Origin: Bdellovibrionota bacterium FG-2
Lineage (GTDB): Bacteria > Bdellovibrionota > UBA1018
Direction of reading: 5' to 3'
DNA length: 16,810 nt
NCBI GenBank assembly: GCA_051382305.1
Contig: JBBCAV010000120.1
Coordinates: 1-16,810, forward strand
Of the stretch, positions 1 to 14,524 are shown in pieces. The notes under the pieces were generated by a model. That model saw only the letters and a list, made by a program, of their open reading frames with translations. It did no database searches and was not told where the DNA came from. Position numbers and translations under genes: made by a program. The first letter of the stretch is position 1; each line of letters starts with the position of its first letter.

Positions 1-98
1 GTTTTACGAAAAACCCAGCAACCGCGACAGTGGCGGTGAGCGGGACCCCGCCCCACAAAACCTTTTTTTTCATGCGGGCCACCCTCGAAAGAAAAAAA

Positions 99-917
99 TT
101 AACCCCCCCCGACTGCCCTGAACGACCCAACCCCCCCCCCCCCCCCGCCGTTATTTAGAAGGCTAATGAGGAGACCTAAAAGAAACCCCCAAAACCCCTC
201 ATCGCCAGAGGTGCGCCCATAAGGGCGCGCACCAAAGGGGCTTGGCCTATACCAACCTTTGTTCGTGAAATGCGCTTCGCGTGCCGACAAGGAGCGTGCA
301 ACGGCCGCAAAAACCAAAATTCCAACGACCAGCCAAATCCAACTGCCCAATGGCGACCGGTGCACCACACGCGCTCGCGACGAATGTCTAAATCCCCCGC
401 CCTCTAAAATCTGAAGTGCGCGACCATTGGCAATCAGCGGGCTCTCAATCGTCTTCAATATTTCCAAGACCCCGAGCGATAGCGCACGCCCTGGCGTCCC
501 ACCTCTCAACTCAGGTGCAATCACTTCGGAGAGAATCGTTTTAGATTTTGCATCAGTTAGAAGGTGCTCGAGACCATACCCCACCTCGACGCGCATCTTG
601 TGCTCTTTCCAATACAGCGCCAAAAGCACACCGTTGTCTTTACCCTTCTTGCCAATCTTCCACGCCGAAAAAATCCGATTCGTGCGATCCGCTACCTCGC
701 CGTCACCTAGCGAATCAAAAATCGCGACGACGAATTGTTCAGTGGTAGTGCGCTCGTGCTCTTCCAAAATAGAATCAAGAGCCGAAAATGTTGGCGCATC
801 CAAAACATGCGCCTGATCCGAAATATGCTGTGTGGGCGCCGGAGGAAACGGCGCGTCGCCTGCTGCGAAACAAATTCCACTCAAAAAAAATGAGAGGGCA
901 AAAATCCCAGCCCGCAC
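99..917 (-). CDS. TPM domain-containing membrane protein (YgcG-like)
   Basis: Signal peptide, TPM motifs (ISDQAHVL, WKIGKKGKDNGVLL, RVEVGYGLE), TM helix and Gly-rich tail. GTG start overlaps the lemA TAG by 1 nt. The 3' end is uncertain because of homopolymer-rich sequence. Confidence 0.9.
   Translation of the reverse strand: MRAGIFALSFFLSGICFAAGDAPFPPAPTQHISDQAHVLDAPTFSALDSILEEHERTTTEQFVVAIFDSLGDGEVADRTNRIFSAWKIGKKGKDNGVLLALYWKEHKMRVEVGYGLEHLLTDAKSKTILSEVIAPELRGGTPGRALSLGVLEILKTIESPLIANGRALQILEGGGFRHSSRARVVHRSPLGSWIWLVVGILVFAAVARSLSAREAHFTNKGWYRPSPFGARPYGRTSGDEGFWGFLLGLLISLLNNGGGGGGVGSFRAVGGG
131..146. repeat. C16 homopolymer (G16 on the coding strand) in the Gly-rich tail of the TPM gene
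   Basis: 16 consecutive C read directly from the sequence; may be a sequencing artefact. Confidence 0.8.
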
Positions 918-1510
918 TAGAACTCCACTTTAGGAGCCACCTTAGCGCCGGCAGCAGCCTCGAAGTACGCCTTTTCCTTAAACCCTCGCATCCCCGCAAT
1001 AAAGGACTGAGGGAACTTACGAAGGAAGGTGTTGTACTCTCGCGCCGCCTCGTTGAAACGCATGCGCTCAACTGTAATTCGGTTTTCCGTTCCTTCAAGC
1101 TGAGATTGCAACTCCAAGAACCCCTTGTCGGCCTTAAGTTCGGGGTACTTTTCCGTAATCACCATGAGTCGAGAAAGGGCCGAAGACAGCTGCCCCTGGG
1201 CTTGATCAAATTTCTTTAAATCTTCAGGACTTTGAACCTTGATGTTACCGACTGACGCACGCGCTTTAGTCACTTCTTCCAAAACCGTTGCTTCATGCTT
1301 GGCGTAGCCCTTAACGGTATTAACGAGATTCGGAATCAAATCCGCTCTGCGTTGATACACGTTTTCGACCTGGGACCATTTCTCTTTGACGCTCTCATCC
1401 ATTCCGACGAGTGAGTTATTGACTGAAACGCCCCACATTATCGCCATTGCAGCCAGAAGAAGCATTGACCCAAAAATCCCGCCCACAATTAACAAAACTT
1501 TGTTGTTCAT
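917..1510 (-). CDS. lemA: LemA family protein
   Basis: Motifs WSQVENVYQRRADLIPNLVNTVKGYA, EKYPELKA and QLEGTENRITVERMRFNE; N-terminal TM helix. Start moved to the ATG at 1510 because the track's TTG at 1546 is part of a TTGACA -35 box. Confidence 0.95.
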   Translation of the reverse strand: MNNKVLLIVGGIFGSMLLLAAMAIMWGVSVNNSLVGMDESVKEKWSQVENVYQRRADLIPNLVNTVKGYAKHEATVLEEVTKARASVGNIKVQSPEDLKKFDQAQGQLSSALSRLMVITEKYPELKADKGFLELQSQLEGTENRITVERMRFNEAAREYNTFLRKFPQSFIAGMRGFKEKAYFEAAAGAKVAPKVEF

Positions 1511-1517
1511 ACCCTGC

Positions 1518-1546
1518 ATAGTGGGGACGATTTTGGGCACTGTCAA
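1518..1546 (-). promoter_or_regulatory. Sigma70-type promoter for lemA, probably leaderless
   Basis: TTGACA (1546-1541), 17 bp, CACTAT (1523-1518), 7 nt, then ATG (1510). Confidence 0.65.
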
Positions 1547-1560
1547 ATGGAATAAATCCC

Positions 1561-1589
1561 TTGCCGTACGCCTAAAACCTCGGTAATAA
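1561..1589 (+). promoter_or_regulatory. Sigma70-type promoter for the rpsB operon
   Basis: TTGCCG (1561-1566), 17 bp, TAATAA (1584-1589), directly upstream of the S2 leader RNA. Confidence 0.55.
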
Positions 1590-1600
1590 CCTAGTCAGTA

Positions 1601-1698
1601 AATCCACACACCCTGAGTCTCGTGGTGCTGGTCCCATTGGGGGGCCAGAAGGTCGGGGTGGAGGGAGACGGAAATTTTTTTCGTCTCAAAACCGCGGG
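1601..1698 (+). ncRNA. rpsB 5' leader (t44 / S2 autoregulatory RNA)
   Basis: ACACACCCTGA...TCGGGGTGGAGG outer stem motif, GGTGC motif and inner CTGGTCCC/GGGGCCAG hairpin. Also a GAGACG/CGTCTC hairpin and pseudoknot-type pairing of CTCGTGGT (1619-1626) with ACCGCGGG (1691-1698). Position upstream of rpsB fits. Confidence 0.8.
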
Positions 1699-1799
1699 AA
1701 GCACGTCAGCTCCTTATAATCCAAGGGTCCTCCTTCGGGTTTCAAGATTCTGTCTCAGCCTTCCGCACAGACCAGAAAATATAAACTAAGGAGTGAATC

Positions 1800-2747
1800 A
1801 TGCCTGCAATTACAATGAGAGAGCTATTAGAAGCCGGTGTCCACTTTGGACATCAAACCCGCCGCTGGAATCCCAAGATGAAGCCGTATGTTTTCGGCGC
1901 ACGTAACGGGATCTACATCATCGATCTTCAAAAAACCGTAGATCAAACCCGCGCTGCTTGCACATTTGCCGCTCAAATCGCCGCCGAAGGAAAACGCATT
2001 TTGTTCGTCGGCACGAAAAAACAAGCTAAAGATGTGATCGAAGAAGAAGCGCGCCGCTCGGGCATGTATTTCGTCAACAACCGTTGGTTAGGCGGAATGC
2101 TCACTAACTATCAAACCGTGAAAGCTTCGATCGATCGTTTGAAAAAAATCGAAACCATGAAGACTTCCCCCGAGTGGAACGAGATCTCCAAAAAAGAACA
2201 ATCTCGTATCGATCGCGAATACGACAAGCTCAAGAAGTCCTTGGGTGGAATCCAAGACATGAAAAAACTTCCTGGCGCGATTTTCGTGATCGACACCGAG
2301 AAGGAACACATTGCGGTGAAAGAAGCCAAGAAACTTGGAATCCCAACCATCGCTGTCGTAGACACTAACTGTGATCCTTCAAATATTACCCACGTGATTC
2401 CAGGCAACGATGATGCGATTCGCAGCATTCGCCTATTCTCTCGCTTGATCGCCGATAGTTGCCTGGAAGGCACCAAGACCTTCCAAGAAAAATTGCGCGC
2501 CCAAGAAGTGAGCGACGCGGCCGCCAAAGAAGACGCTGAAACCGAAAAACGCGTCTCTCGCTTTGAAGGCGACATCGACCTTCAAGGAGTGGATGAAGCG
2601 GATCTTGCGGCTCAGGAAACCGCTGAAGTGACTGAAGAAGCCGCAGTGACCGCTGCAGGGACTGAAGTCCCCGCTGTTGCGACACCCGTTATTGAAGCTG
2701 CTCCCGCTGTTCCAGCGCCTAAAGCGGCCAAGAAGAAAACCAAGTAA
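1800..2747 (+). CDS. rpsB: 30S ribosomal protein S2 with long acidic, Ala/Pro-rich C-terminal extension
   Basis: [53 protein letters not shown] at 1788-1793. Confidence 0.99.
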
Positions 2748-2778
2748 CCTTCATTCGGCATTAACTAAGGAGTTTAGA

Positions 2779-4115
<1,337 letters not shown>

Positions 4116-4141
4116 GAACTCACAAATATAAGGAGACCGGT

Positions 4142-4699
4142 ATGTCAAAAGCGATTATCGATTCAATGGCTCAGGAGATGGACAAAAGCATTCAATCTCT
4201 TAAACAGGAGTTATCGAAACTTCGCACAGGCCGCGCTTCCACTGGACTTGTCGATACCGTACATGTCGATTATTACGGCTCCAAAGTTCCCATGAACCAA
4301 GTGGCAAACGTCACCACACCTGACGCGCGTACGATCCAAATTACTCCCTGGGAAGGCGGAATGGTCGGCGCAATTGAAAAAGCCATTCTAGCCGCAAACA
4401 TTGGCCTGACCCCACAAAATGACGGAAAAGTAATCCGTGTCTCCCTTCCTCCATTGACCGAAGAACGGCGCAAAGACATGGTGAAAGTCGTCAAGAAGAT
4501 GGGCGAAGAAACCAAGGTTGCTATCCGAAATCATCGTCGTGACGCCAACGAAAACGTTAAGAAACAGGAAAAAGGCAAGGCCTTAACTGAAGATGATGCC
4601 AAAAAAGCAATGGACTTAGTTCAAAAGAAGACTGACGAAAAAACGGGAGAAGTTGATAAAATCGTCGCGGCCAAGGAAAAAGAAGTTCTTACCGTCTAG
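4142..4699 (+). CDS. frr: Ribosome recycling factor
   Basis: LRTGRAS, VDYYG, PPLTEERRK, AIRNHRRDAN; SD AAGGAG; synteny. Confidence 0.99.
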   Translation: MSKAIIDSMAQEMDKSIQSLKQELSKLRTGRASTGLVDTVHVDYYGSKVPMNQVANVTTPDARTIQITPWEGGMVGAIEKAILAANIGLTPQNDGKVIRVSLPPLTEERRKDMVKVVKKMGEETKVAIRNHRRDANENVKKQEKGKALTEDDAKKAMDLVQKKTDEKTGEVDKIVAAKEKEVLTV

Positions 4700-5442
4700 T
4701 GCAGCCGCCAAAACATGTAGCCATCATCATGGACGGGAACGGGCGCTGGGCTCAAAACCGGCACCATCCGCGGGTATTTGGCCACGTTCGCGGCGCCTCT
4801 CGCATCAAGCCTGTTGTTCGCGAAGCTGAACGCCTCGGCATCCAAGCGCTTACGCTGTATGCATTTTCAACCGAGAACTGGTCACGGCCCGAAGAAGAGC
4901 TTGGCGTTTTGTGGAAAATTCTAAAAAAATTCCTCAAACGTGAGGCCGATGAGCTGGCAGCGCGAAACGTAAGACTGCGGGTCATAGGTGAGGTTGAGCG
5001 GCTGGGGCGCGATGTCCGCGAGGTTTTAGACCCAGTGCTAGAACGACTTTCGAAAAACACCGGACTTCAACTCACTTTTGCCGTGTCTTACGGATCGAGG
5101 CGAGAACTTGTGCGAGCTGCACGTCTTTTTGCCGAAGATTGTGTTGCCGGAAAACGAAAGCCTGAAGAGCTCCAAGAACGCGGCGATTCACTTTTCGGTG
5201 AATACCTCTGGACCGCCGACCTAGGCCCACTCTCTCAGGTGGATCTTGTCATTCGCACAAGTGGCGAGAAAAGAATTAGCAACTTTTTACTGTGGCAAGC
5301 CGCGTACGCTGAGTTCGTATTCCTTGATTTATGCTGGCCTGATTTTGAACCGCGCCATCTTGACGAGGCGGTCCTAGAATTTTCAAATCGCGATCGCCGC
5401 TTTGGTGGATTGAATGATAAAAAAGGGGGAGGGCGTCCATGA
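4699..5442 (+). CDS. uppS: Undecaprenyl diphosphate synthase (cis-prenyltransferase)
   Basis: PKHVAIIMDGNGRWA, LYAFSTENWSRP, DLVIRTSGEKRISNFLLWQ; TAGTG overlap with frr. Confidence 0.98.
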   Translation: MQPPKHVAIIMDGNGRWAQNRHHPRVFGHVRGASRIKPVVREAERLGIQALTLYAFSTENWSRPEEELGVLWKILKKFLKREADELAARNVRLRVIGEVERLGRDVREVLDPVLERLSKNTGLQLTFAVSYGSRRELVRAARLFAEDCVAGKRKPEELQERGDSLFGEYLWTADLGPLSQVDLVIRTSGEKRISNFLLWQAAYAEFVFLDLCWPDFEPRHLDEAVLEFSNRDRRFGGLNDKKGGGRP

Positions 5443-6272
5443 CAAAGAAAACCGCGTCAGAGTTAAAGAAACGGGTGATCACAGGTCTGATTGGGAGTAC
5501 TGTTTTGCTCACTATTCTGATTTTTGGGGGCTGGGTCGGAATTTTATTCATCTCCGTCGTCATCAGTTTGGGAATGGTTGCTGAGTACGCAAACATCACT
5601 CTGTCGCTTTCAGACAAAGCGGAGAAAAGACTCGTCTTGCTGTGCATGGCCTGGTTTGTCCACCTCGCAAACTTGCTCGCTGCAACGGCTAAAGCCGAGA
5701 TTGCCGTTCTGTGCTTCTTGGCTGTTTTTACCTATTTCCTGGTGACAGCCGTTCGTTTTGATGGCGAGGACTTTGCCGGGCACTTCAAAGAGCTCACGTT
5801 CGTGGTTTTCGGAGCTGCCTATCTCATTTTTATGCCGCTCTTTTTCCCCTTAATTCATCAAAGTATCAACGGTGTGAACTGGACAATTTTGTTTCTTCTC
5901 ATTGTATGGTCGGGCGATACGGGCGCCTATTTTGCCGGCAAGAAGTACGGGAAGATGAAGCTTTATCCCAAAATCAGCCCCAAGAAGACTGTCGAGGGCG
6001 CCGTCGGGGGCCTTGCGGCCGGGCTCGTAGTCGCCTTCATCTATAAGCTTCTCATTTTTAGAGCATTAAGCTGGGGAAGCGTCTTTTTAGTTCCCCTTAT
6101 TATTGGCTCTGCGTCACAAGCGGGTGATTTGTGCGAAAGCTTTGTGAAGCGAGCGTTTGGCGTCAAAGACTCGGGCTCCATTCTCCCAGGGCACGGGGGA
6201 TTCCTCGATCGCTTCGATGGGGTGGTGTTCAGTTTGCCGGTCATGTATGCTTGTACGAGACTCTTTGGATAA
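5439..6272 (+). CDS. cdsA: Phosphatidate cytidylyltransferase
   Basis: Polytopic membrane protein with DTGAYFAG, ISPKKTVEG, GDLCESFVKR and KDSGSILPGHGGFLDRFD; ATGA overlap. Confidence 0.98.
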   Translation: MTKKTASELKKRVITGLIGSTVLLTILIFGGWVGILFISVVISLGMVAEYANITLSLSDKAEKRLVLLCMAWFVHLANLLAATAKAEIAVLCFLAVFTYFLVTAVRFDGEDFAGHFKELTFVVFGAAYLIFMPLFFPLIHQSINGVNWTILFLLIVWSGDTGAYFAGKKYGKMKLYPKISPKKTVEGAVGGLAAGLVVAFIYKLLIFRALSWGSVFLVPLIIGSASQAGDLCESFVKRAFGVKDSGSILPGHGGFLDRFDGVVFSLPVMYACTRLFG

Positions 6273-6308
6273 ACCTAATTAAGTAAGCGACTGCGCTAAG
6301 GAGAGGCC

Positions 6309-7943
6309 ATGCTTTCACTTCTCGGTTTTTTAATCATGCTAGGACCACTCGTCATCGTGCACGAGTTTGGTCACTATATTTTTGCTAAGATCTTCGGCGT
6401 AAAAGCTGAAATTTTCTCCGTGGGTTTTGGTCCCAAGGTCTTTTCGCGGCAATGTGGAGAGACTGAGGTTCGAATTTCGGCGATTCCCCTGGGCGGCTAC
6501 GTTAAACTCTTAGGTGAGGAGCGCGAGGCTGAACTGAAGCCTGAAGACAAGCCCCGCGCACTTCATGCGCAAGCCGCTTGGAAACGTTTTTTTATCTTCT
6601 TTGGCGGCCCTTTGTTTAATTTCGTATGGGCCATAGTTGTATTCATGGTGATGATGGCTCTAGGCGAGCAGCAAATTGCAAGCGTCGTGGGCCGAGTACT
6701 ACCGGGGTCTGTCGCATCCCAGATTGGCTTTCAACCCAATGACAAAATTCTTGCCGTCGAAGGCAAACCGGTGCGCACTTTCGAAGACGTTCAGCTTGAA
6801 ATCCTCAATCATCCCGATCAAAAAATTCGCTTTGACCTTGCCCAAAACTCTGGAACGCGAACACTCCTTGTGCCGACTTCTGCCGAAAGCGGGTACAGTG
6901 AATACGGTGAAGAGACCAAAGTCGGCCGGGTTGAAGGACTTTTGCGAGACGGTCGCGGAACCCTCATCGGAATCTCAAACTCCAAATCCATCGCAGGTCT
7001 TGCCGGAGTAAAAACGGGCGATCAGATTCTGGAGATCAACGGCACCCCCATTAAGTCATGGGAGGAAGTTGAAGCATTGTTTGAAAAAGCGGGCGCGGGA
7101 GCGGTTTTTCAATTCAAAACAGGAAAAACGGGCGTCCAAAGTCCAACCGATGCGCATGCCTTTGCGTACACGAAGGGCCAAAATGCACGAAGTCTTGGCG
7201 AGGAAACCGGACTTTATTCTTCGGAGCTATTCGTAGACTCAACTCCGGCTAAATCTCCCGCCGAAGTCGCGGGTGTTAAAGCTGGGGATCGATTGGCCGC
7301 AGTGGGGAAAACCGAAATTCGCAGTTTTTTTGAACTTCGTGAAACGATTCAAAAAGCGGGAGAAACCGAAGGGAAAGTGAGTCTCACCTGGGAACGAGAT
7401 GGCCAGCGCATCACGCAGCAAATGGTTCCCACGGCCACTTCTCAACGCGATCCACTTCTGAACAAGAAGACCCAATACACCATTGGGGTCTTCCCGAAAG
7501 TCTCTTTTGCCGAGCCTGTTTTTATCATTGAACGTGTTCTCAACCCCTTTAAACTTCTTTATCGTAGCACCGCGCGCGTTGCTGATTTCACCCAGAAGAA
7601 TTTCACAGTTATTCGAAAAATGATTGTCGGGGATGTCTCGGTCGCGACACTGGGCGGTCCCATCATGATTGGTAAAATTGCGGGCGAATCTCTGGCGCAC
7701 GGAATTAATGCGTTCCTAGGGACCATGGCGATCTTGTCCATTGGCCTGGGCGTTTTGAATATTCTGCCGGTCCCTGTTTTAGACGGCGGGCATTTGATGC
7801 TGCTCGGGATTGAGGCCATTCGTCGCAAACCCCTTACCATTCGTCAGATGGAAGTCATTCAACAAGTGGGGCTTTCGCTTATTCTGCTTTTGATGATTGT
7901 GGTTATTCGAAACGACCTGGCGAGATTACCATTTTTTCAGTAG
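6309..7943 (+). CDS. rseP: RseP-like site-2 (M50) metalloprotease with three PDZ-like domains
   Basis: HEFGH zinc motif, IPLGGYVK, GGPLFN, NILPVPVLDGG; three PDZ-like blocks; synteny after cdsA. Confidence 0.97.
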   Translation: MLSLLGFLIMLGPLVIVHEFGHYIFAKIFGVKAEIFSVGFGPKVFSRQCGETEVRISAIPLGGYVKLLGEEREAELKPEDKPRALHAQAAWKRFFIFFGGPLFNFVWAIVVFMVMMALGEQQIASVVGRVLPGSVASQIGFQPNDKILAVEGKPVRTFEDVQLEILNHPDQKIRFDLAQNSGTRTLLVPTSAESGYSEYGEETKVGRVEGLLRDGRGTLIGISNSKSIAGLAGVKTGDQILEINGTPIKSWEEVEALFEKAGAGAVFQFKTGKTGVQSPTDAHAFAYTKGQNARSLGEETGLYSSELFVDSTPAKSPAEVAGVKAGDRLAAVGKTEIRSFFELRETIQKAGETEGKVSLTWERDGQRITQQMVPTATSQRDPLLNKKTQYTIGVFPKVSFAEPVFIIERVLNPFKLLYRSTARVADFTQKNFTVIRKMIVGDVSVATLGGPIMIGKIAGESLAHGINAFLGTMAILSIGLGVLNILPVPVLDGGHLMLLGIEAIRRKPLTIRQMEVIQQVGLSLILLLMIVVIRNDLARLPFFQ

Positions 7944-7952
7944 AATTTTCGT

Positions 7953-8780
7953 ATGAAACTCCTGGCGTGGGATACTTCTTCAAAAGTCGGTGCAATCGTG
8001 GCCATCGAATGGGATCAAAACTCGCGCGAGGGGCGTGAGGGCCTTAAACTGCGTTCCGAGTGGTCGTTAGATGTGGATATTACACATTCGGATGGCCTTT
8101 TGTGGGGCATTGACCAGATGCTCTCGTCGTGTCGATGGAAACTTTCCGATATCGATGTTTTGGGAGTGGGCGTTGGGCCAGGGAGTTTTACGGGACTTCG
8201 CATCGGCGTGACGCTTGCGCGAACGCTGGGCCATGCGCTCAAAAAACCTCTGGTGGGAGTTTCATCCCTTGCGGTTCTAGCAAGGCCGCTGGCGGATGTC
8301 ATGAAGGGTCGCAAGGCCGTCGTCATTGCCGCAACCGATGCATGCAAGGGCGAGCTTTTTTCTCTTTTTGGAAACGCGCGAAGTGTTTTGGATTGCGTGA
8401 GTGCCGCGCAAGGGGATTTTCCGGGAGTTTGGAAACGCGGGGTAGAAGAGAGTGTGCTTGCACCCGAGGCTTTAGCCAAAGCAATTAAGAAGAAATTAAC
8501 TGAGGGCGGGACTTCTTGCGTGTGGTCCGTGGTAGGAGAGGGGCGTCTCCGTTATCCCGAAGTGTGGAAGGCGCTTCCGGTTCGCAGGCGAATGGAGTCA
8601 TTAATTCCTTTTGCAGATCAAATTCAGCCCCGCGCGCTCGGCATAATTTGTTGGGAAGCTTACCAGGCCGGGCTCGCTCGCGACGCCCTCATTGTTCATC
8701 CTCGCTACCTGCGAGCGCCAGATGCGGAGCTGAAGCTGAAAGCCGGGAAGCTGCCGGCGGGTCCGACTCGGGGGGATTAA
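7953..8780 (+). CDS. tsaB: tRNA threonylcarbamoyladenosine biosynthesis protein TsaB
   Basis: LLAWDTSS, HSDGL, GVGPGSFTGLRIG, VGVSSL and C-terminal PRYLR. Confidence 0.95.
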   Translation: MKLLAWDTSSKVGAIVAIEWDQNSREGREGLKLRSEWSLDVDITHSDGLLWGIDQMLSSCRWKLSDIDVLGVGVGPGSFTGLRIGVTLARTLGHALKKPLVGVSSLAVLARPLADVMKGRKAVVIAATDACKGELFSLFGNARSVLDCVSAAQGDFPGVWKRGVEESVLAPEALAKAIKKKLTEGGTSCVWSVVGEGRLRYPEVWKALPVRRRMESLIPFADQIQPRALGIICWEAYQAGLARDALIVHPRYLRAPDAELKLKAGKLPAGPTRGD

Positions 8781-8786
8781 GGACCG

Positions 8787-9151
8787 TTACTTGCGTAGTA
8801 TCTGGCAGATCCCCTTTTTCCACGGTAAACAGCGAAACTCCTCAACTGGCAGTTCCCGCTCGCCGCGATACAAGACGAAAGCTTCACACTCTCCAACATC
8901 TTTCTTAAAGCTTTGAACTAGAGTACGATCGAGCGTTCGCTTTACTCCTAGATCAAAAAAATAGAATTTCGGTTTTAAGCTCTCCCGTTTTCGAACTGAG
9001 GGATGAAATGAATCGAGTCGAACAAATTGAACCTGATCGCCGACTCACTACCAAAAAACAGCGCATTAAGGAGCGTGCCTTTGCCGGTTCCTCGGGCTCC
9101 GAAGATGAAAAAGTTTTGATCTTTTATCAACTTAGACAATCATCCTATCAT
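8787..9151 (-). pseudogene. Remnant of an AAA_14 + DUF4143 ATP-binding protein gene
   Basis: Manual translation. Frame A from ATG 9151 reads MIG*LSKLIKDQNFFIFGARGTGKGTLLNALF, with Walker A at 9100-9074 and TGA at codon 4. Frame B reads RLDSFHPSVRKRESLKPKFYFFDLGVKRTL...FRCLPWKKGICQILRK* and ends at 8787. Confidence 0.85.
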
Positions 9152-9383
9152 ATGAGTATATTGTACGCCATTTTACTATCGTACACAGAAAAATGCGCAA
9201 TTAGCACCACCCCCAAGGCCCAAGGCCTAACGCCCTTAACTTCCGAAATCGTGAAATTACGCGGCTTAGGGGGGCACCCTTGCGCCAGTTTCTTCACTTT
9301 TTGAGAAGTCACTGCCCGAAACCCCTGCCTGCGACCCCCGCGCGCACTCCAGTCGCTCCGCGACACGGCAATTACCCGCGCGT

Positions 9384-9412
9384 TTGCCCCCCAGCCCCCC
9401 CTCATGTATAGT
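9384..9412 (+). promoter_or_regulatory. Sigma70-type promoter for pssA, probably leaderless
   Basis: TTGCCC (9384-9389), 17 bp, TATAGT (9407-9412), 6 nt, then ATG (9419); no SD. Confidence 0.7.
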
Positions 9413-9418
9413 CGCAAT

Positions 9419-10222
9419 ATGCGAAAGATCTACATTGTCCCAAATATCGTCACGACAGCGAACATGTTTTGCGGATTCTATTCTGTCATCGCCTCTATGC
9501 ATGGAGATTTTGTCACGGCCGCTTGGGCGATAATGGCAGCTGGAATTTTCGATATGCTCGATGGCCGCATCGCCCGCATTGCCAAAGCCACCAGTCTCTT
9601 TGGCGTGGAGTATGACAGCCTCTCGGATTTGATTTCATTTGGGATGGCCCCTGCTATTCTTCTTTATCAATGGGCTTTGGAACCCTTTGGTCGGTTGGGT
9701 TTTATCTCCGCATTCTTGTTCTTGGTTTGCGGCGGCCTGAGGCTTGCTCGATTCAATGTGACGACCTCAAATCTTCCCAAGGGCTTTTTTCAAGGTCTCC
9801 CAATCCCAATGGGCGCAGGAATTCCCGCAACGTTTGTTATCTTCTACCAATTCCTTTGCTCCGATTCTGCGGCCGGGGGTCCTGAAGAATTTGCCCGAAT
9901 CCCGATTCTGATCATGACACTTGTGATGGCAGCCCTGATGATTAGCACGATTCGTTTCCCCTCCTTCAAGGAGCTCAATTGGCGCTCACGCGCAAGTTTC
10001 GGGTATCTGATGATCGGCGTAGTGTCGATGGTCCTCATCGCGATAAAGCCAGAAATCACACTATTCCTGCTCTTAGGTGGTTACATCGGGGTCAGCTTGA
10101 TTTGGAATCTCGTCTCGCTGATTAGAAAAATTCCCATGGTCTCTCCTCAACTAGAGGTGGACGACGGTCCCCAACCCGAAACTGAGACGGACCATGAGAC
10201 ATTACATGAAGAAAAAACTTAA
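9419..10222 (+). CDS. pssA: CDP-diacylglycerol--serine O-phosphatidyltransferase (type II)
   Basis: PNIVT, CDP-alcohol phosphotransferase motif DMLDGRIAR...FGVEYDSLSD, LRLARFN and FQGLPIP. Start set to 9419 because the ATG at 9404 lies inside the promoter. Confidence 0.95.
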   Translation: MRKIYIVPNIVTTANMFCGFYSVIASMHGDFVTAAWAIMAAGIFDMLDGRIARIAKATSLFGVEYDSLSDLISFGMAPAILLYQWALEPFGRLGFISAFLFLVCGGLRLARFNVTTSNLPKGFFQGLPIPMGAGIPATFVIFYQFLCSDSAAGGPEEFARIPILIMTLVMAALMISTIRFPSFKELNWRSRASFGYLMIGVVSMVLIAIKPEITLFLLLGGYIGVSLIWNLVSLIRKIPMVSPQLEVDDGPQPETETDHETLHEEKT

Positions 10223-11264
10223 GGTCGCCGTTGTCGGTGCCACGGGTGCTGTTGGGAGGATTCTTCTCTCGATATTGGAAGAGCGTCGTTTTCCACTCAC
10301 TGAGCTTGTACCTTTCGCCTCTTCGCGATCGCTGGGGAAAATCGTCACCTATCAAGACAAGCCGTTAACCTGTCAAGTTCTGGCGCTAGGCTGCTTTCAA
10401 GATGTCGACCTCGCCTTTTTTGATGCTTCAGACGCCGTTTCAAAACAATGGGTGCCCGTTGCTCAAGCCGCAGGGACTTGGGTGGTGGATAATTCAGCAA
10501 CTTTTCGCTACGACCCCTCCATTCCGTTGATGGTTCCTGAGCTCAATGCCGAAAGCCTCTCCCTTGCGCTCGCTTCGGGGAGTAAGGTGATTACAGGTCC
10601 CAACTGCTCTACCGTCCAGATGGTAATGGCGCTCAAACCCATTCAAGACCTGTGGGGACTTAAACGCGTGGTCGTTTCGACCTATCAAAGTACAAGCGGC
10701 GCCGGGGCCGCGGCGATGCAAGAACTTCAAGATCAAACGGCGGAATTTCTAGGCGCCCCCGCCCGCCACTCCGCGAACGAACCTTCCATTTTTCCACATC
10801 CCATCGCCTTCAATTGCATCCCACACATCGGGGGGTTCGCCTCAGAACCTGGTAGTCCCTTCGAAGGCTATAGCAGCGAAGAACGCAAAATGATTCTGGA
10901 GACCCGGAAAATCCTGGGCCTCCCTGAGCTCGCGATCACCGCGACTGCAGTTCGAGTTCCCACTTTGGCTTGCCACGGAGAATCCATCAACATCGAGACT
11001 CTCAAGCCCTTCGAGCTGCATGAAGTTCGATCCGCACTCAAGGCCCAGACAGGAATCACGCTTGTCGATGACCCTCTTCAGAAGCAATATCCGCTCGGAC
11101 GAAACGGAGCAGGGAAGGACGCGGTATTTGTCGGGAGACTCCGACGCGATTCTTCTATCGAGAATGCTTTGAACCTTTGGGTAGTTTCCGATAATCTACG
11201 CAAAGGAGCAGCTCTAAATGCCGTGCAAATTGGTGAACTCTTGGTTCAGTGTTTTTTTACTTAG
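10206..11264 (+). CDS. asd: Aspartate-semialdehyde dehydrogenase
   Basis: VAVVGATGAVG, VVDNS, catalytic PNCST, STYQSTSGAG, VRVP, DNLRKGAALNAVQI. Alternative start at 10194; overlaps the pssA end. Confidence 0.96.
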   Translation: MKKKLKVAVVGATGAVGRILLSILEERRFPLTELVPFASSRSLGKIVTYQDKPLTCQVLALGCFQDVDLAFFDASDAVSKQWVPVAQAAGTWVVDNSATFRYDPSIPLMVPELNAESLSLALASGSKVITGPNCSTVQMVMALKPIQDLWGLKRVVVSTYQSTSGAGAAAMQELQDQTAEFLGAPARHSANEPSIFPHPIAFNCIPHIGGFASEPGSPFEGYSSEERKMILETRKILGLPELAITATAVRVPTLACHGESINIETLKPFELHEVRSALKAQTGITLVDDPLQKQYPLGRNGAGKDAVFVGRLRRDSSIENALNLWVVSDNLRKGAALNAVQIGELLVQCFFT

Positions 11265-13701
11265 CACCTCTCTTTTTTGGGTCTTTTCCCCTTTCGCCAG
11301 AGCGACCATGACTGTTGTTCCGGTCAACGGCGGCAATCTGATCAAAGATACCGTTTTTTATGCCCTCATTGATCCCAAGACAGGTCTCGCCCCTACAAAC
11401 GACTCGATATTCTTGGATTCTGATCCCACGTTTCCCTTTAAGATATTTGATGTTCGCGTGGACCAAGCGACCGATACCTCGGGACGGCCAGAGATGTTTC
11501 TCTTCGATGTCTCTTCGGACAAGACCAGCTTTACCACGACGACGAATCAGATTCTCGTCCTCACGGTTTCAACGGGACCTGCTGCCGGGTCTGCAGGCGC
11601 CAAGAACGTTCCGATTACTTCGGTCAACGGAGCGGACTGTACCTCTGGGGTTTGCCACACGGCGGGGGTCAGCCTATCAGGACACTATTTTGCGACTAGT
11701 TTCGCTAAAGGCACGACTGTGCGGGTGGGGTTCTATCCTAGAGACGTTTGTAACGATTACCTCGCGCAAGCTCAAACAACGGCAGCCGGATGCGCTACGG
11801 ATCCTAGCGTCACTTCTCAACAAACTGTCGTTCCTGGAGCAGCTCCCGCGACCCTCCCCATCATGCCACTCACGTTTGCCATCAACGTGCTTCCAAGTTC
11901 TTCAGAAGCGCCAACAGGTACCGCACAGGACTCCGGGGTTTTGAATATGCGATTTCAAATTGATGCGCCAAAGTTGAACTGTCCGAATCTTGCGGGCCAG
12001 CAAATTTACATTCCAGGAGACAGAGCCATCACTCTCGATTCGTCCGGCTTTGGAATGGGAACAGACTTGGGTAGTTTTGTCGTTGATCGTGCTCCCGCGA
12101 CCACACTGCTTGTGGTCGGAAACGACGGAAAAGATCCGGATGTTTCTTCGTCTTTCGCAACCGGAAATGCGATTCTATCACGGACCCCGATTGGCTCCTC
12201 CGCCATTGTTGGAGGACTCACGAACACCACCGACCAAAGTGATCATAAATTTCAATTCTCTTTTCTGATACGAGATGCCACAGGGCTTTTGGCTGCCCCC
12301 TCGGACCTTCCAGCTTGTACCCTTAAGGATGTCCAAACCTCAACGATTCAGGGATTCCTTCAAAAAAGTAGCTGCTTCATTGCAACCGCAGCGTTTAACT
12401 CCGCCGACGCTTCTCCTGTAACTATGCTCCGTGAGTTTCGGGGAAAAGTTCTGTTAGGTTCCGCCTGGGGTCGTGCCTTCGTGCGCACCTATTATCGCTG
12501 GTCCCCGCCCGCGGCGCAATGGCTTCTAGCGCACCCGGCGGTGAGAATTCCAGTACTGTTTTGGCTTATTCCGGTAGAACTTCTGGCCTGGATTACGCTT
12601 TCGCCCGGAGTGTTTATCGTCCTTTTTCTGAGCGGTGTTTTTCTCGTGTTATTTTCTTTGGCGTTTTATTTGCGAAAGCGGTTCACACCTCTTTTCCTTT
12701 TAGCATTAGCAGCCATTCTCCTTGGATCACTTTTACCGCTAACCTCTCCGGCCCAAGAAAAAACTACGCAACCCTATATCGACGAACTAAAAAAAGGGAT
12801 GGAAGAAAAAGAAACGTCTTCCAAACCTTACACTGACCTACAAAAAGAAAAACTGCCCCCCAACTTGATCAAGCTTGGCGCTTACATCGACGAACTTAAG
12901 AAAGAGGCCCCCGAAAGTTCAAAGGAGGGCTCAACACCAACTCATGGAACCTTTCTCGAGCGCGAACAGGAGAAAATTAGGGAAAAAGACGCCGAAAATG
13001 ATGAAAAGAAACTGGGCGCAATTGAAGCTTTTAAGCAGGGAAAATCTGATCTCGAAGCAAAAAAGATCGGCCAGATACTTCACGCAACAGGCTTTCGAAT
13101 TGGGGTCTCTTCTACTCGAAACATCACCGCCCCGGCGGGTACGGGGTTAAGAAACTTTTCGGACGTCTATGGGACTTCGTGGACGCCAGAGATTAGCCTG
13201 TTCTTCGAATATCAGCCTTTTCACAGCGAATGGTTTGGGAGTTTTGGCTTATGGTATGGCTTTGGCGTTAGCTACTATCACGGCTATGGGTCATTTGAAT
13301 TTCCTCTCCGCGACGCGAATACAAATACTGATTTTAATATAAAATCCAGTACCCTTCTGCAGTTTTACGCCATCCCCGTGACCGCGGGATTGAGCTATCG
13401 ACTCAATTTTTTGAGACTCATAAGACCTTACGTCATGGTCGCTCCCACCCTTATTGGATACCTTGAAACACGAAACGACGATCAGTCGGGCTATCGAGGC
13501 GTATCAAAAGGCTTGTTCTTTAACGGCGGAGCCGCGATTCTTTTGGATTGGATGAGTCGGAGCATGGATTACGACCGCAATGCCGCGCTTGGAATACACC
13601 ACACTTATATCACCGTCGATTACACGCGAATATCGACGCTTGCGAGCACGGTGTCCTTTTCAGTTTCTTCTTTGAGCGTTGGGTTGACGTTTGAATACTG
13701 A
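11218..13701 (+). CDS. Secreted/envelope protein: exported domain, internal CFI-box-CTERM, second signal-like segment and putative outer-membrane beta-barrel
   Basis: 827-aa open frame with SD AAGGAG 9 nt before the ATG. Signal peptide ends in ARA (aa 29). CFIATAAF...LREFR...GRAFVRTYYRWSPP starts at aa 386, hydrophobic segments span about aa 444-510, and amphipathic strands end in VGLTFEY. Confidence 0.85.
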   Translation: MPCKLVNSWFSVFLLSTSLFWVFSPFARATMTVVPVNGGNLIKDTVFYALIDPKTGLAPTNDSIFLDSDPTFPFKIFDVRVDQATDTSGRPEMFLFDVSSDKTSFTTTTNQILVLTVSTGPAAGSAGAKNVPITSVNGADCTSGVCHTAGVSLSGHYFATSFAKGTTVRVGFYPRDVCNDYLAQAQTTAAGCATDPSVTSQQTVVPGAAPATLPIMPLTFAINVLPSSSEAPTGTAQDSGVLNMRFQIDAPKLNCPNLAGQQIYIPGDRAITLDSSGFGMGTDLGSFVVDRAPATTLLVVGNDGKDPDVSSSFATGNAILSRTPIGSSAIVGGLTNTTDQSDHKFQFSFLIRDATGLLAAPSDLPACTLKDVQTSTIQGFLQKSSCFIATAAFNSADASPVTMLREFRGKVLLGSAWGRAFVRTYYRWSPPAAQWLLAHPAVRIPVLFWLIPVELLAWITLSPGVFIVLFLSGVFLVLFSLAFYLRKRFTPLFLLALAAILLGSLLPLTSPAQEKTTQPYIDELKKGMEEKETSSKPYTDLQKEKLPPNLIKLGAYIDELKKEAPESSKEGSTPTHGTFLEREQEKIREKDAENDEKKLGAIEAFKQGKSDLEAKKIGQILHATGFRIGVSSTRNITAPAGTGLRNFSDVYGTSWTPEISLFFEYQPFHSEWFGSFGLWYGFGVSYYHGYGSFEFPLRDANTNTDFNIKSSTLLQFYAIPVTAGLSYRLNFLRLIRPYVMVAPTLIGYLETRNDDQSGYRGVSKGLFFNGGAAILLDWMSRSMDYDRNAALGIHHTYITVDYTRISTLASTVSFSVSSLSVGLTFEY
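12772..12903 (+). repeat. Intragenic peptide repeats (PYIDELKK / PYTDLQKEK / AYIDELKK)
   Basis: Copies at aa 519, 537 and 555, 18 aa apart. Nucleotide similarity: tatatcgacgaactaaaaaaag vs tacatcgacgaacttaagaaag. Confidence 0.75.
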
Positions 13702-14524
13702 ATTTTCTTCCAAATATGCAGCGCTCATCTCCTACACGGGCACGCGATTTTGTGGTTGGCAGAAACAAAAAGGCTCCGCTGCACAGGGTGCGCCGAGCAT
13801 TCAAGAAACAATCGAAAAAGGGCTGAGCAGGATTACTCAGGAGCCCGTAAGAATCGTGGGAAGCGGTCGAACCGATGCAGGAGTTCATGCCGTGGGACAG
13901 GTCGCTCATTTTTTTCTTCAGAAAGAGCGCTCGCCCGAAATTTTAAAAAAGGGCCTGAACTCACTGCTTGAGCCCAACATTCGCGTGCGCGCGATCCAGC
14001 CTGTCGCCATGGATTTTCATGCTCAAAAAAATGCCCTCAAAAAGCAATACAGCTACTACTTTCAACAAGGCCCCTGCGCGTTGCCCCACCTTGAGCCTTG
14101 GAGTTGGTGGATTCAAAAAAAATTGGATCGCGATGCAATGAGCCAAGGTTTAGCCAATCTCCTGGGTGAGCATGATTTTAAGCCTTTCCAGGGGGCAGGC
14201 GCAAAACCGGGATCGACGGTCCGCCGAATCTTAGAAGCACAGGTCAGTTGGGAGCCGATCGCCTTTCCAGGGGGAATCAGTGAAATAGATAACCGATTTG
14301 GGCTGGTGCGCGTTAGAATTATCGGGACAGGGTTTCTCAAACAAATGGTACGGGGAATCGCTGGAACACTCTTGCAAGTGGGGGAATCCCGGCGGTCGTC
14401 CGATTGTTTTCAGGAGATCCTGAATAGGCGGGATCGATCTCTGGTAGGGCCCACCGCACCTGGGCGAGCCCTTTGGTTAGAGAGAGTTTGGTATCCTCAA
14501 GAGACGGTTGACTTTTCGCGTTGA
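13691..14524 (+). CDS. truA: tRNA pseudouridine(38-40) synthase
   Basis: SYTGTRFCGWQKQ, catalytic GSGRTDAGVHA, FHAQ, GFLKQMVR, PTAP; TTG start overlaps the upstream gene by 11 nt. Confidence 0.97.
   Translation: MNTEFSSKYAALISYTGTRFCGWQKQKGSAAQGAPSIQETIEKGLSRITQEPVRIVGSGRTDAGVHAVGQVAHFFLQKERSPEILKKGLNSLLEPNIRVRAIQPVAMDFHAQKNALKKQYSYYFQQGPCALPHLEPWSWWIQKKLDRDAMSQGLANLLGEHDFKPFQGAGAKPGSTVRRILEAQVSWEPIAFPGGISEIDNRFGLVRVRIIGTGFLKQMVRGIAGTLLQVGESRRSSDCFQEILNRRDRSLVGPTAPGRALWLERVWYPQETVDFSR

Follow-up and report, generated by a model that had tools for sequence, protein, structure and literature searches.

The stretch of DNA considered here (the window: 16,810 nucleotides (nt), positions 1 to 16,810 of contig JBBCAV010000120.1 in assembly GCA_051382305.1 of Bdellovibrionota bacterium FG-2, an uncultured relative of Bdellovibrio) contains a single open frame of 827 amino acids (aa), in which a protein carrying a CFI-box is joined to an outer-membrane β-barrel. 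This fusion is almost certainly genuine and orthologous to pairs of separate genes in related genomes. On the balance of probability, the frame unites, in phase, the two genes of an envelope module that is conserved in the Bdellovibrionota and whose products would be routed to the inner and the outer membrane by the path set out below. That two partner proteins are fused, as had been proposed from the letters of the window alone (the original prediction), is strongly supported, because orthologues at the same locus occur both as one frame and as two overlapping genes. The outline given by that prediction also stands: one frame (11218-13701) encodes a signal peptide (aa 1-29), an exported domain and a CFI-box at aa 386 (nt 12373); RKR, a hydrophobic core and S-P-A/QEK occupy aa 486-515; and the β region of about 205 aa that ends in FEY (aa 622-826) is modelled as an eight-stranded barrel.

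The evidence that carries the fusion comes from the comparison of relatives. Matches are found in 40 of 41 genomes of the same family and order. The 32 loci that have both halves on one contig were classified from stop to stop; 11 of them, the window included, form one frame, and 21 form two. They occupy the same position between asd and truA, with truA downstream in 30 of the 32 and asd upstream in 23, the loci without one of these genes being limited by the flank fetched or by contig ends. A genome of the same genus, assembled separately, carries the fusion too, at 76% identity and with a diverged junction, and a second public assembly, which may stem from the same sample, has positions 12300-13100 on one contig with 0 differences; a search for RNA data over these positions gave none. 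An exhaustive HMMER search with aa 516-827 returned 420 cluster representatives at an expect value (E) of 1e-3 or less; among the best 150 of these 420, 29 (the window's own protein counted) are 667-867 aa long with the match at the C-terminus. Of 151 genomes sampled from the phylum, 68 match the barrel family NF053801 at E ≤1e-8 (69 matches in total), and 17 of the 69 lie in frames of at least 700 aa, across 6 families; the six matches above the cut-off of that family are all split, in frames of 357-393 aa. In a maximum-likelihood tree calculated on the barrel columns of 112 rows, of which 37 are fused, at least 24 switches between the fused and split states are needed, against a mean of 31 for shuffled states, and the well-supported branches alone force at least 5. 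Fused and split sister pairs are 56-66% identical.

Individual relatives depart from these two arrangements. In one genome (G029), the N-terminal half (C10:62713-64023) and the barrel (C15:30534-31619) are on different contigs, both far from contig position 1, which may reflect an unlinked pair or a misassembly. The matches to the N-terminal half in G006, G032, G031, G026, G024 and G011 contain 1-2 internal stops, mostly where the match continues past the stop into the barrel gene that overlaps. In G011 (locus L016, on a contig of 3.1 kilobases), the N-terminal gene itself is apparently interrupted by a TAG, and this locus is counted among those with two frames.

The junction of the window protein corresponds to the ends of two split proteins joined exactly. 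Split N-terminal proteins end with the CFI-box, a hydrophobic helix (helix a), a transmembrane segment (TM b), a basic tail and the stop codon, and in split barrel proteins the initial methionine leads into basic residues, a hydrophobic core and a small-x-small site, with QPYIDxLK only a few residues further on. In the fused protein, the hydrophobic segment that follows the basic cluster (segment c) aligns with the N-terminal signal peptides of split barrel proteins. AlphaFold2 predicts a high-confidence helix at aa 463-486, covering TM b, and returns a predicted local distance difference test score (pLDDT) below 50 at aa 503-518, in the region of segment c. Twenty split pairs allowed a judgement of the overlap. 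With the barrel starts that we chose, every one of them has the barrel gene beginning inside the gene upstream; the shared stretch is exactly 4 nt long (ATGA, GTGA or TTGA) in 12 pairs and 1-37 nt long in the other 8. Given a gene overlap of the 4-nt type, an insertion or deletion (indel) of 1 nt would merge the frames. The basic tail of the anchor would then become the n-region of the signal, and the hairpin made of TM b and segment c would keep the topology of both flanks. Most of the 29 long forms mentioned above keep TM b, the basic cluster, segment c and the small-x-small site, and a few are without the hairpin.

The N-terminal half starts with a Sec-type signal peptide, in which aa 5-22 are modelled by AlphaFold2 as helical at low pLDDT; this signal peptide and the internal one were identified from the sequence and a crude rule of our own. 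The exported domain, modelled alone from an alignment of relatives (A3), reaches a pLDDT of 91 and a predicted template modelling score (pTM) of 0.88. Foldseek matches it to tandem FN3/immunoglobulin (Ig)-like proteins only, with template modelling scores (TM-scores) of at most 0.36, and a search of the ESM Atlas with the same domain gave no usable match. Because only FN3/Ig-like proteins are matched, the modelled domain looks adhesin-like or structural rather than enzyme-like. Six cysteines are near-invariant in it (141, 146, 178, 192, 255 and 367), as would be expected of an exported, disulfide-bonded domain. The CFI-box that follows matches NF041770 (CFI-box-CTERM) at 72.8 bits, above the curated cut-off of 40 (E 1.4e-20, profile positions 1-67 of 69), and the same protein scores 77.3 bits in a search of the genome. 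The Cys-Phe-Ile signature stands at the start of the module, its cysteine is near-invariant in alignment A3, and helices at aa 399-410 and 416-438 are predicted at high pLDDT. In the fused protein the module is internal, with 375 residues after aa 452; in the 21 split orthologues it is C-terminal and is followed only by the transmembrane segment and the basic tail.

The C-terminal half consists of a linker and the barrel. In the full-length AlphaFold2 model (mean pLDDT 87, pTM 0.72), obtained with an alignment of 137 rows of fused, N-terminal-only and barrel-only relatives (A1), the N-terminal domain is rich in β-strands, four high-confidence helices span the CFI-box and TM b, and eight strands are placed within aa 622-826 (205 aa) at a pLDDT above 90. 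When compared with the PDB by Foldseek, the barrel resembles the transmembrane domain of OmpA, Ail, OmpX and NspA, with 9fzc_A as the best match (E 7.6e-8) and target-normalised TM-scores of 0.62-0.69 (0.66 for 9fzc_A; similar values for 1bxw, 1qj9, 3qrc and 1p4t). It shares the eight-stranded fold with these proteins, but it is only 10-12% identical to them and differs in having a long N-terminal periplasmic repeat linker and a CFI-box partner. Among NCBIfam hidden Markov models (HMMs), NF053801 (the Bd0486 family) matches the barrel part only, at 90.5 bits (E 1.2e-25, profile positions 136-356), and NF040596 (the MXAN_2562 family) at 52.3 bits (E 5.5e-14, profile positions 15-208 of 208). 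Pfam gives nothing above its cut-offs for the whole protein or for either half. Chance matches are excluded by HMM E-values of 1e-20 and 1e-25 and by the conservation in 40 of 41 related genomes. The repeats of the linker follow the motif (P/A/T)-aromatic-(I/T/L)-(D/E)-x-(L/E)-(K/Q), of the PYIDELK type, with a spacing of 18-23 residues (aa 519-600, window 12772-13020). The first of them (QPYIDxLK), just past the predicted cleavage site, is near-invariant in relatives; no family match was found for the repeats, and the linker is modelled as short helices at a pLDDT of 53-78.

These features suggest a path for the precursor, every step of which we infer. The N-terminal signal peptide would take the chain through Sec, and the Ig-like domain would fold in the periplasm with disulfides. 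TM b (464-485) would stop the transfer, leaving RKR in the cytoplasm, and segment c (489-512) would re-insert as a signal peptide, so that b and c form a hairpin. Signal peptidase I, an enzyme encoded in the source genome, would then cut after S-P-A512. The products would be an inner-membrane-anchored N-terminal protein and a barrel protein of 315 aa, which the β-barrel assembly machinery (BAM) would insert into the outer membrane while the repeat linker stays in the periplasm, and the two products would associate there.

It is quite probable that the two halves bind each other. For aa 30-485 against aa 516-827, the complex prediction gave a score of 0.56, against 0.00 for the best control. 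Of 80 solved complexes, 58 attain the mark applied, as do 2 of 110 mismatched pairs; among those that attain it, a score of 0.60 or less is seen in only 7 of the 80 solved complexes and in both mismatches. As an alignment of our own was used for the prediction, these benchmark counts hold only roughly. The runs agree in at least 74% of contacts, with a partner pLDDT of at least 66. The score is taken as modest support because gene order and recurrent fusion give a high prior. According to the models, anchoring or tethering is more likely than export of a cargo. The original prediction had suggested that such barrels display or export CFI-box cargo: export by the barrel is unlikely because it has only eight strands, and display or tethering is possible.

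Cleavage between A512 and Q513 appears, from the features of the site and its conservation, to be the most likely fate of the precursor, with a chance slightly better than even. Our own crude rule, which requires a small residue at both -1 and -3 behind a hydrophobic stretch, excludes proline at +1 and mis-picked some sites, assigns a signal-peptidase-type site to 34 of the 37 fused sequences and to 68 of the 75 split ones. Alanine occupies -1 in 28 of these 34 and in 60 of these 68, and the PY motif lies at a median distance of 7 residues in fused forms and 6 in split forms. In fused forms, much as in split ones, the small residues at -3 and -1 precede an acidic residue or a glutamine. Signal peptidase cleavage is plausible because fused forms retain the site and because no ribosome-binding site was seen inside the frame. 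Literature searches for a bacterial signal peptidase cutting an internal signal peptide gave only viral and unrelated cases.

A number of observations weigh against this path. In family f10, the fusions of all six genomes examined are without TM b and segment c, and helix a runs directly into the small-x-small site, acidic residues and QPYID; these hairpin-less forms imply that a covalent linkage of the halves is compatible with function and that cleavage is not required in principle. By hydropathy, the window protein has three transmembrane-like segments (helix a, TM b and segment c), and a crossing of the membrane by helix a would place the barrel in the cytoplasm. A fused relative (G018, locus L011) has helix a and a single transmembrane segment without the basic cluster, and, having one further hydrophobic segment only, its topology would fit export of the barrel only if helix a crosses; the branch leading to this relative is long (1.01; median 0.47). 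The complex prediction lends weak support, and the source genome is a draft of 433 contigs that is 85% complete. Lastly, the barrel scores lie below the curated cut-offs of 370 for NF053801 and 100 for NF040596, and membership in neither family can be assigned. With 90.5 bits, far under 370, the barrel is a distant homologue of Bd0486 and does not belong to the same orthologue group. Of the HMM matches that the original prediction proposed to look for, the one to CFI-box-CTERM is thus above its cut-off, and the one to the MXAN_2562-like barrel, at 52.3 bits, is under it. As for helix a, it probably does not cross the membrane, a topology suggested by the basic tails after TM b and by the f10 forms, which keep helix a without any other membrane segment.

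The f10 fusions bear on the alternative that the chain is left uncut. The b and c hairpin would then sit in the inner membrane and the barrel in the outer membrane, with the 109-aa linker spanning the periplasm as a covalent trans-envelope tether that carries the Ig-like domain. Such a fate is unlikely, yet it is the most serious of the competitors: in the six f10 genomes, linker and barrel follow the CFI-box module directly, no internal signal lying in between; the linker has considerable length and some helical content; and a structural role in the envelope would suit a core gene that is near-universal and syntenic, with housekeeping and envelope-lipid genes around it (uppS, cdsA, rseP, a pssA-like gene and asd). 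Against it stands the signal-peptidase-type site, which hairpin-type fusions keep at about the same rate and position as split barrels. In addition, AlphaFold2 treats segment c like an N-terminal signal peptide, at low confidence and unpacked, and TM b at high confidence, which is a weak argument against the uncut chain.

Another alternative is that the barrel half is made separately from an internal start, for instance a TTG at L485 (nt 12670), the locus then acting as two genes. The in-frame TTG directly before RKR would yield a canonical signal peptide, and split relatives start with ATG, GTG or TTG at the equivalent place. However, a Shine-Dalgarno-like motif precedes none of the four in-frame internal GTG or TTG codons at the window junction, against 13 of 21 starts of split barrels. 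Across the 11 fused loci, two candidate codons have such a motif, both of them in one locus. For want of this motif at internal codons, the barrel is probably made only as part of the precursor. Moreover, in the absence of a stop codon for upstream ribosomes, the fused chain would be made anyway, and we regard an internal start as very unlikely.

It is barely credible that the locus truly consists of two overlapping genes and that the frame is open only through an error of assembly or sequencing in this draft metagenome-assembled genome, or through a recent, inactivating indel. An indel of 1 nt in an NTGA overlap would suffice to fuse the frames, the genome is in many contigs, and the second assembly may come from the same reads; against this, the same fusion is present, its junction diverged, in the separately assembled genome of the same genus, 6 families contain fusions, 29 of the best 150 cluster representatives are fused, and both halves are well conserved and fold with high confidence. 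The same-genus fusion and the recurrence throughout the phylum led us to reject this explanation. Equally improbable is an autotransporter-like (type V) mechanism, in which the C-terminal barrel would export the N-terminal passenger to the surface: the succession of signal peptide, passenger, linker and C-terminal barrel is reminiscent of type Va, most of all where f10 fusions have no hairpin, but this mechanism was rejected since the barrel has 8 strands, like OmpA, OmpX and Ail, without a polypeptide pore, where at least 12 strands with a pore would be expected, no autotransporter family is matched in Pfam or NCBIfam, and two separate genes are the usual state.

The nature of the CFI-box itself deserves comment. 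We know of no sorting enzyme for it, and, although it is catalogued, no occurrence of the term was found in the literature. A profile search of the contigs of the source genome finds one barrel copy and two CFI-box matches. The second CFI-box protein has 240 aa and scores 52.2 bits against NF041770 (locus L002, G000 contig C270, 441-1163, + strand). It has neither a signal peptide nor a transmembrane segment after the box and looks cytoplasmic. Its gene is flanked by the end of priA on one side and, on the other, by a signal peptidase I gene (Peptidase_S26) in convergent orientation, after which lptF/G comes (neighbours at 74-430 (+), 1160-1933 (-) and 2029-2604 (+)), and this gene order is identical in all 12 relatives checked. 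A signal-less CFI-box protein, together with the f10 fusions that are without a transmembrane segment or hairpin, argues that the CFI-box may not be solely an export-linked, classical tripartite C-terminal sorting tag. A tentative and rather doubtful extension of the fusion reading would make the CFI-box a docking module close to the membrane, part of a core tether that links the two membranes of the Bdellovibrionota envelope, and not a cleavable sorting tag. Equally doubtful is the arrangement that would go with it, in which an inner-membrane-anchored Ig-like protein is coupled to the eight-stranded barrel via a periplasm-spanning linker, non-covalently in split forms and covalently in fused forms. 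If this were true, the repeated fusions and the loss of the hairpin would be natural experiments indicating that only the physical link between the halves matters.

Fusion of a tag-bearing cargo to a barrel is already in print for MYXO-CTERM, and the window protein is a case of the same kind with a CFI-box. Guo, Haft and Wall 2025 (PMC11980579) report that myxosortase cuts MYXO-CTERM and that sorting tags can act from mid-protein. In their account, MXAN_5598 is made up of an adhesin region, a MYXO-CTERM tag in internal position, a barrel of the outer membrane and an OmpA domain; they consider it a probable fusion of two genes that resembles TraA plus TraB, the ORFs (open reading frames) of which overlap. 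MXAN_5598 and the window protein have in common a cargo fused to a barrel and a tag in internal position. They differ in that the MYXO-CTERM tag of MXAN_5598 is cut by the myxosortase MrtX and its barrel has an OmpA cell-wall-binding domain, whereas searches of NCBIfam and Pfam at E up to 1 gave no MYXO-CTERM or OmpA-domain match in the window protein, which ends with the barrel. A second look-alike comes from a 2026 preprint, which presents the SgmI protein of M. xanthus (MXAN_2561) as FN3 domains with a C-terminal sorting tag, co-transcribed with the barrel MXAN_2562 and similar to it in fitness profile. The N-terminal domain of the window protein is likewise a tandem of FN3/Ig-like folds, and its barrel matches the family of MXAN_2562 (NF040596, 52.3 bits); in contrast, the SgmI and MXAN_2562 genes are separate and belong to another phylum, and the match of the window barrel is below the cut-off of 100. 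No SgmI-type family was matched by the N-terminal half of the window protein at E up to 1 in NCBIfam. The parallels that the original prediction had drawn with myxobacterial pairs of CTERM proteins and barrels (TraA/TraB and MXAN_2561/2562) can therefore be traced to these two sources.

In Bdellovibrio proper, sequence comparison identifies the module as the Bd0486-type barrel and the gene upstream of it. At such a locus (L069), as in the window, an exported CFI-box protein (472 aa) that ends with a transmembrane segment and a basic tail is followed by a barrel with its own signal peptide. Unlike in the window, the 472-aa CFI-box gene and the 366-aa barrel gene are separate and overlap by GTGA, and the linker is rich in E and P without PYIDxLK repeats. 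No mention of Bd0486 as the partner of a CFI-box protein was found in the literature.

Table 1. Features of the fused gene and its immediate neighbours in the window.
Feature	Residues (aa)	Position (nt)	Strand	Description and basis
Open frame of 827 aa	1-827	11218..13701	+	Single uninterrupted frame, CFI-box half and barrel half
Shine-Dalgarno-like AAGGAG		11203..11208	+	9 nt before the ATG at 11218
N-terminal Sec-type signal peptide	1-29	11218..11304	+	K4, hydrophobic core, A27-R28-A29 before T30; read from the sequence
Exported domain	30-385	11305..12372	+	Tandem Ig/FN3-like β-sandwiches; AlphaFold2 and Foldseek
CFI-box module	386-452	12373..12573	+	C386-F-I-A-T-A-A-F, then helices; NF041770
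Helix a	443-461	12544..12600	+	Hydrophobic; conserved P445, P452 and E454
TM b	464-485	12607..12672	+	Anchor of the N-terminal half; equals the C-terminal transmembrane segment of split orthologues
Basic cluster R486-K487-R488	486-488	12673..12681	+	Doubles as n-region of the second signal and as tail of the anchor on the cytoplasmic side
Segment c	489-512	12682..12753	+	Internal, signal-peptide-like; hydrophobic 489-509, then S510-P511-A512
Predicted signal peptidase I site	A512/Q513	12753/12754	+	E514-K515 after; sequence features
Charged periplasmic linker	513-621 (109 aa)	12754..13080	+	Four repeats, at aa 519, 537, 555 and 578
Eight-stranded outer-membrane β-barrel	622-827	13081..13698	+	NCBIfam HMMs, AlphaFold2 and Foldseek; ends F-E-Y
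asd		10194..11264	+	Pfam; conserved upstream neighbour; its end is overlapped by 47 nt by the signal peptide coding region
truA		13691..14524	+	Pfam; conserved downstream neighbour; overlaps the end of the frame by 11 nt

The public gene call starts at an alternative ATG (11308, M31), which gives a product of 797 aa and drops the signal peptide. The ATG at 11218 is preferred because of its Shine-Dalgarno-like motif, no such motif being found ahead of M31, and because the head MPxKLxxxW is conserved in homologues. Upstream, at window 1800-11264, stands a row of genes composed of rpsB, tsf, pyrH, frr, uppS, cdsA, rseP (M50 with PDZ domains), a TsaD-family (tsaB-like) gene, a CDP-alcohol phosphatidyltransferase gene and asd. 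This housekeeping and envelope-lipid row ends with the fused gene, and truA and tig come next. A TPM-domain gene and a LemA gene, both on the minus strand, are found at window 99-1546.

The existence of a fused gene indicates that the two halves work together, not yet how they do so. Recurrent natural fusion implies that CFI-box proteins and barrels of the Bd0486 and MXAN_2562 types would act as one unit, for which the genomic evidence is strong. The window protein thus offers a test case for an internal signal peptide in a bacterial two-protein precursor, for the destination of each half and for the modification of the CFI cysteine. Since the gene is a syntenic and near-universal core gene in the order, the module may matter for the envelope architecture of predatory bacteria and their relatives.

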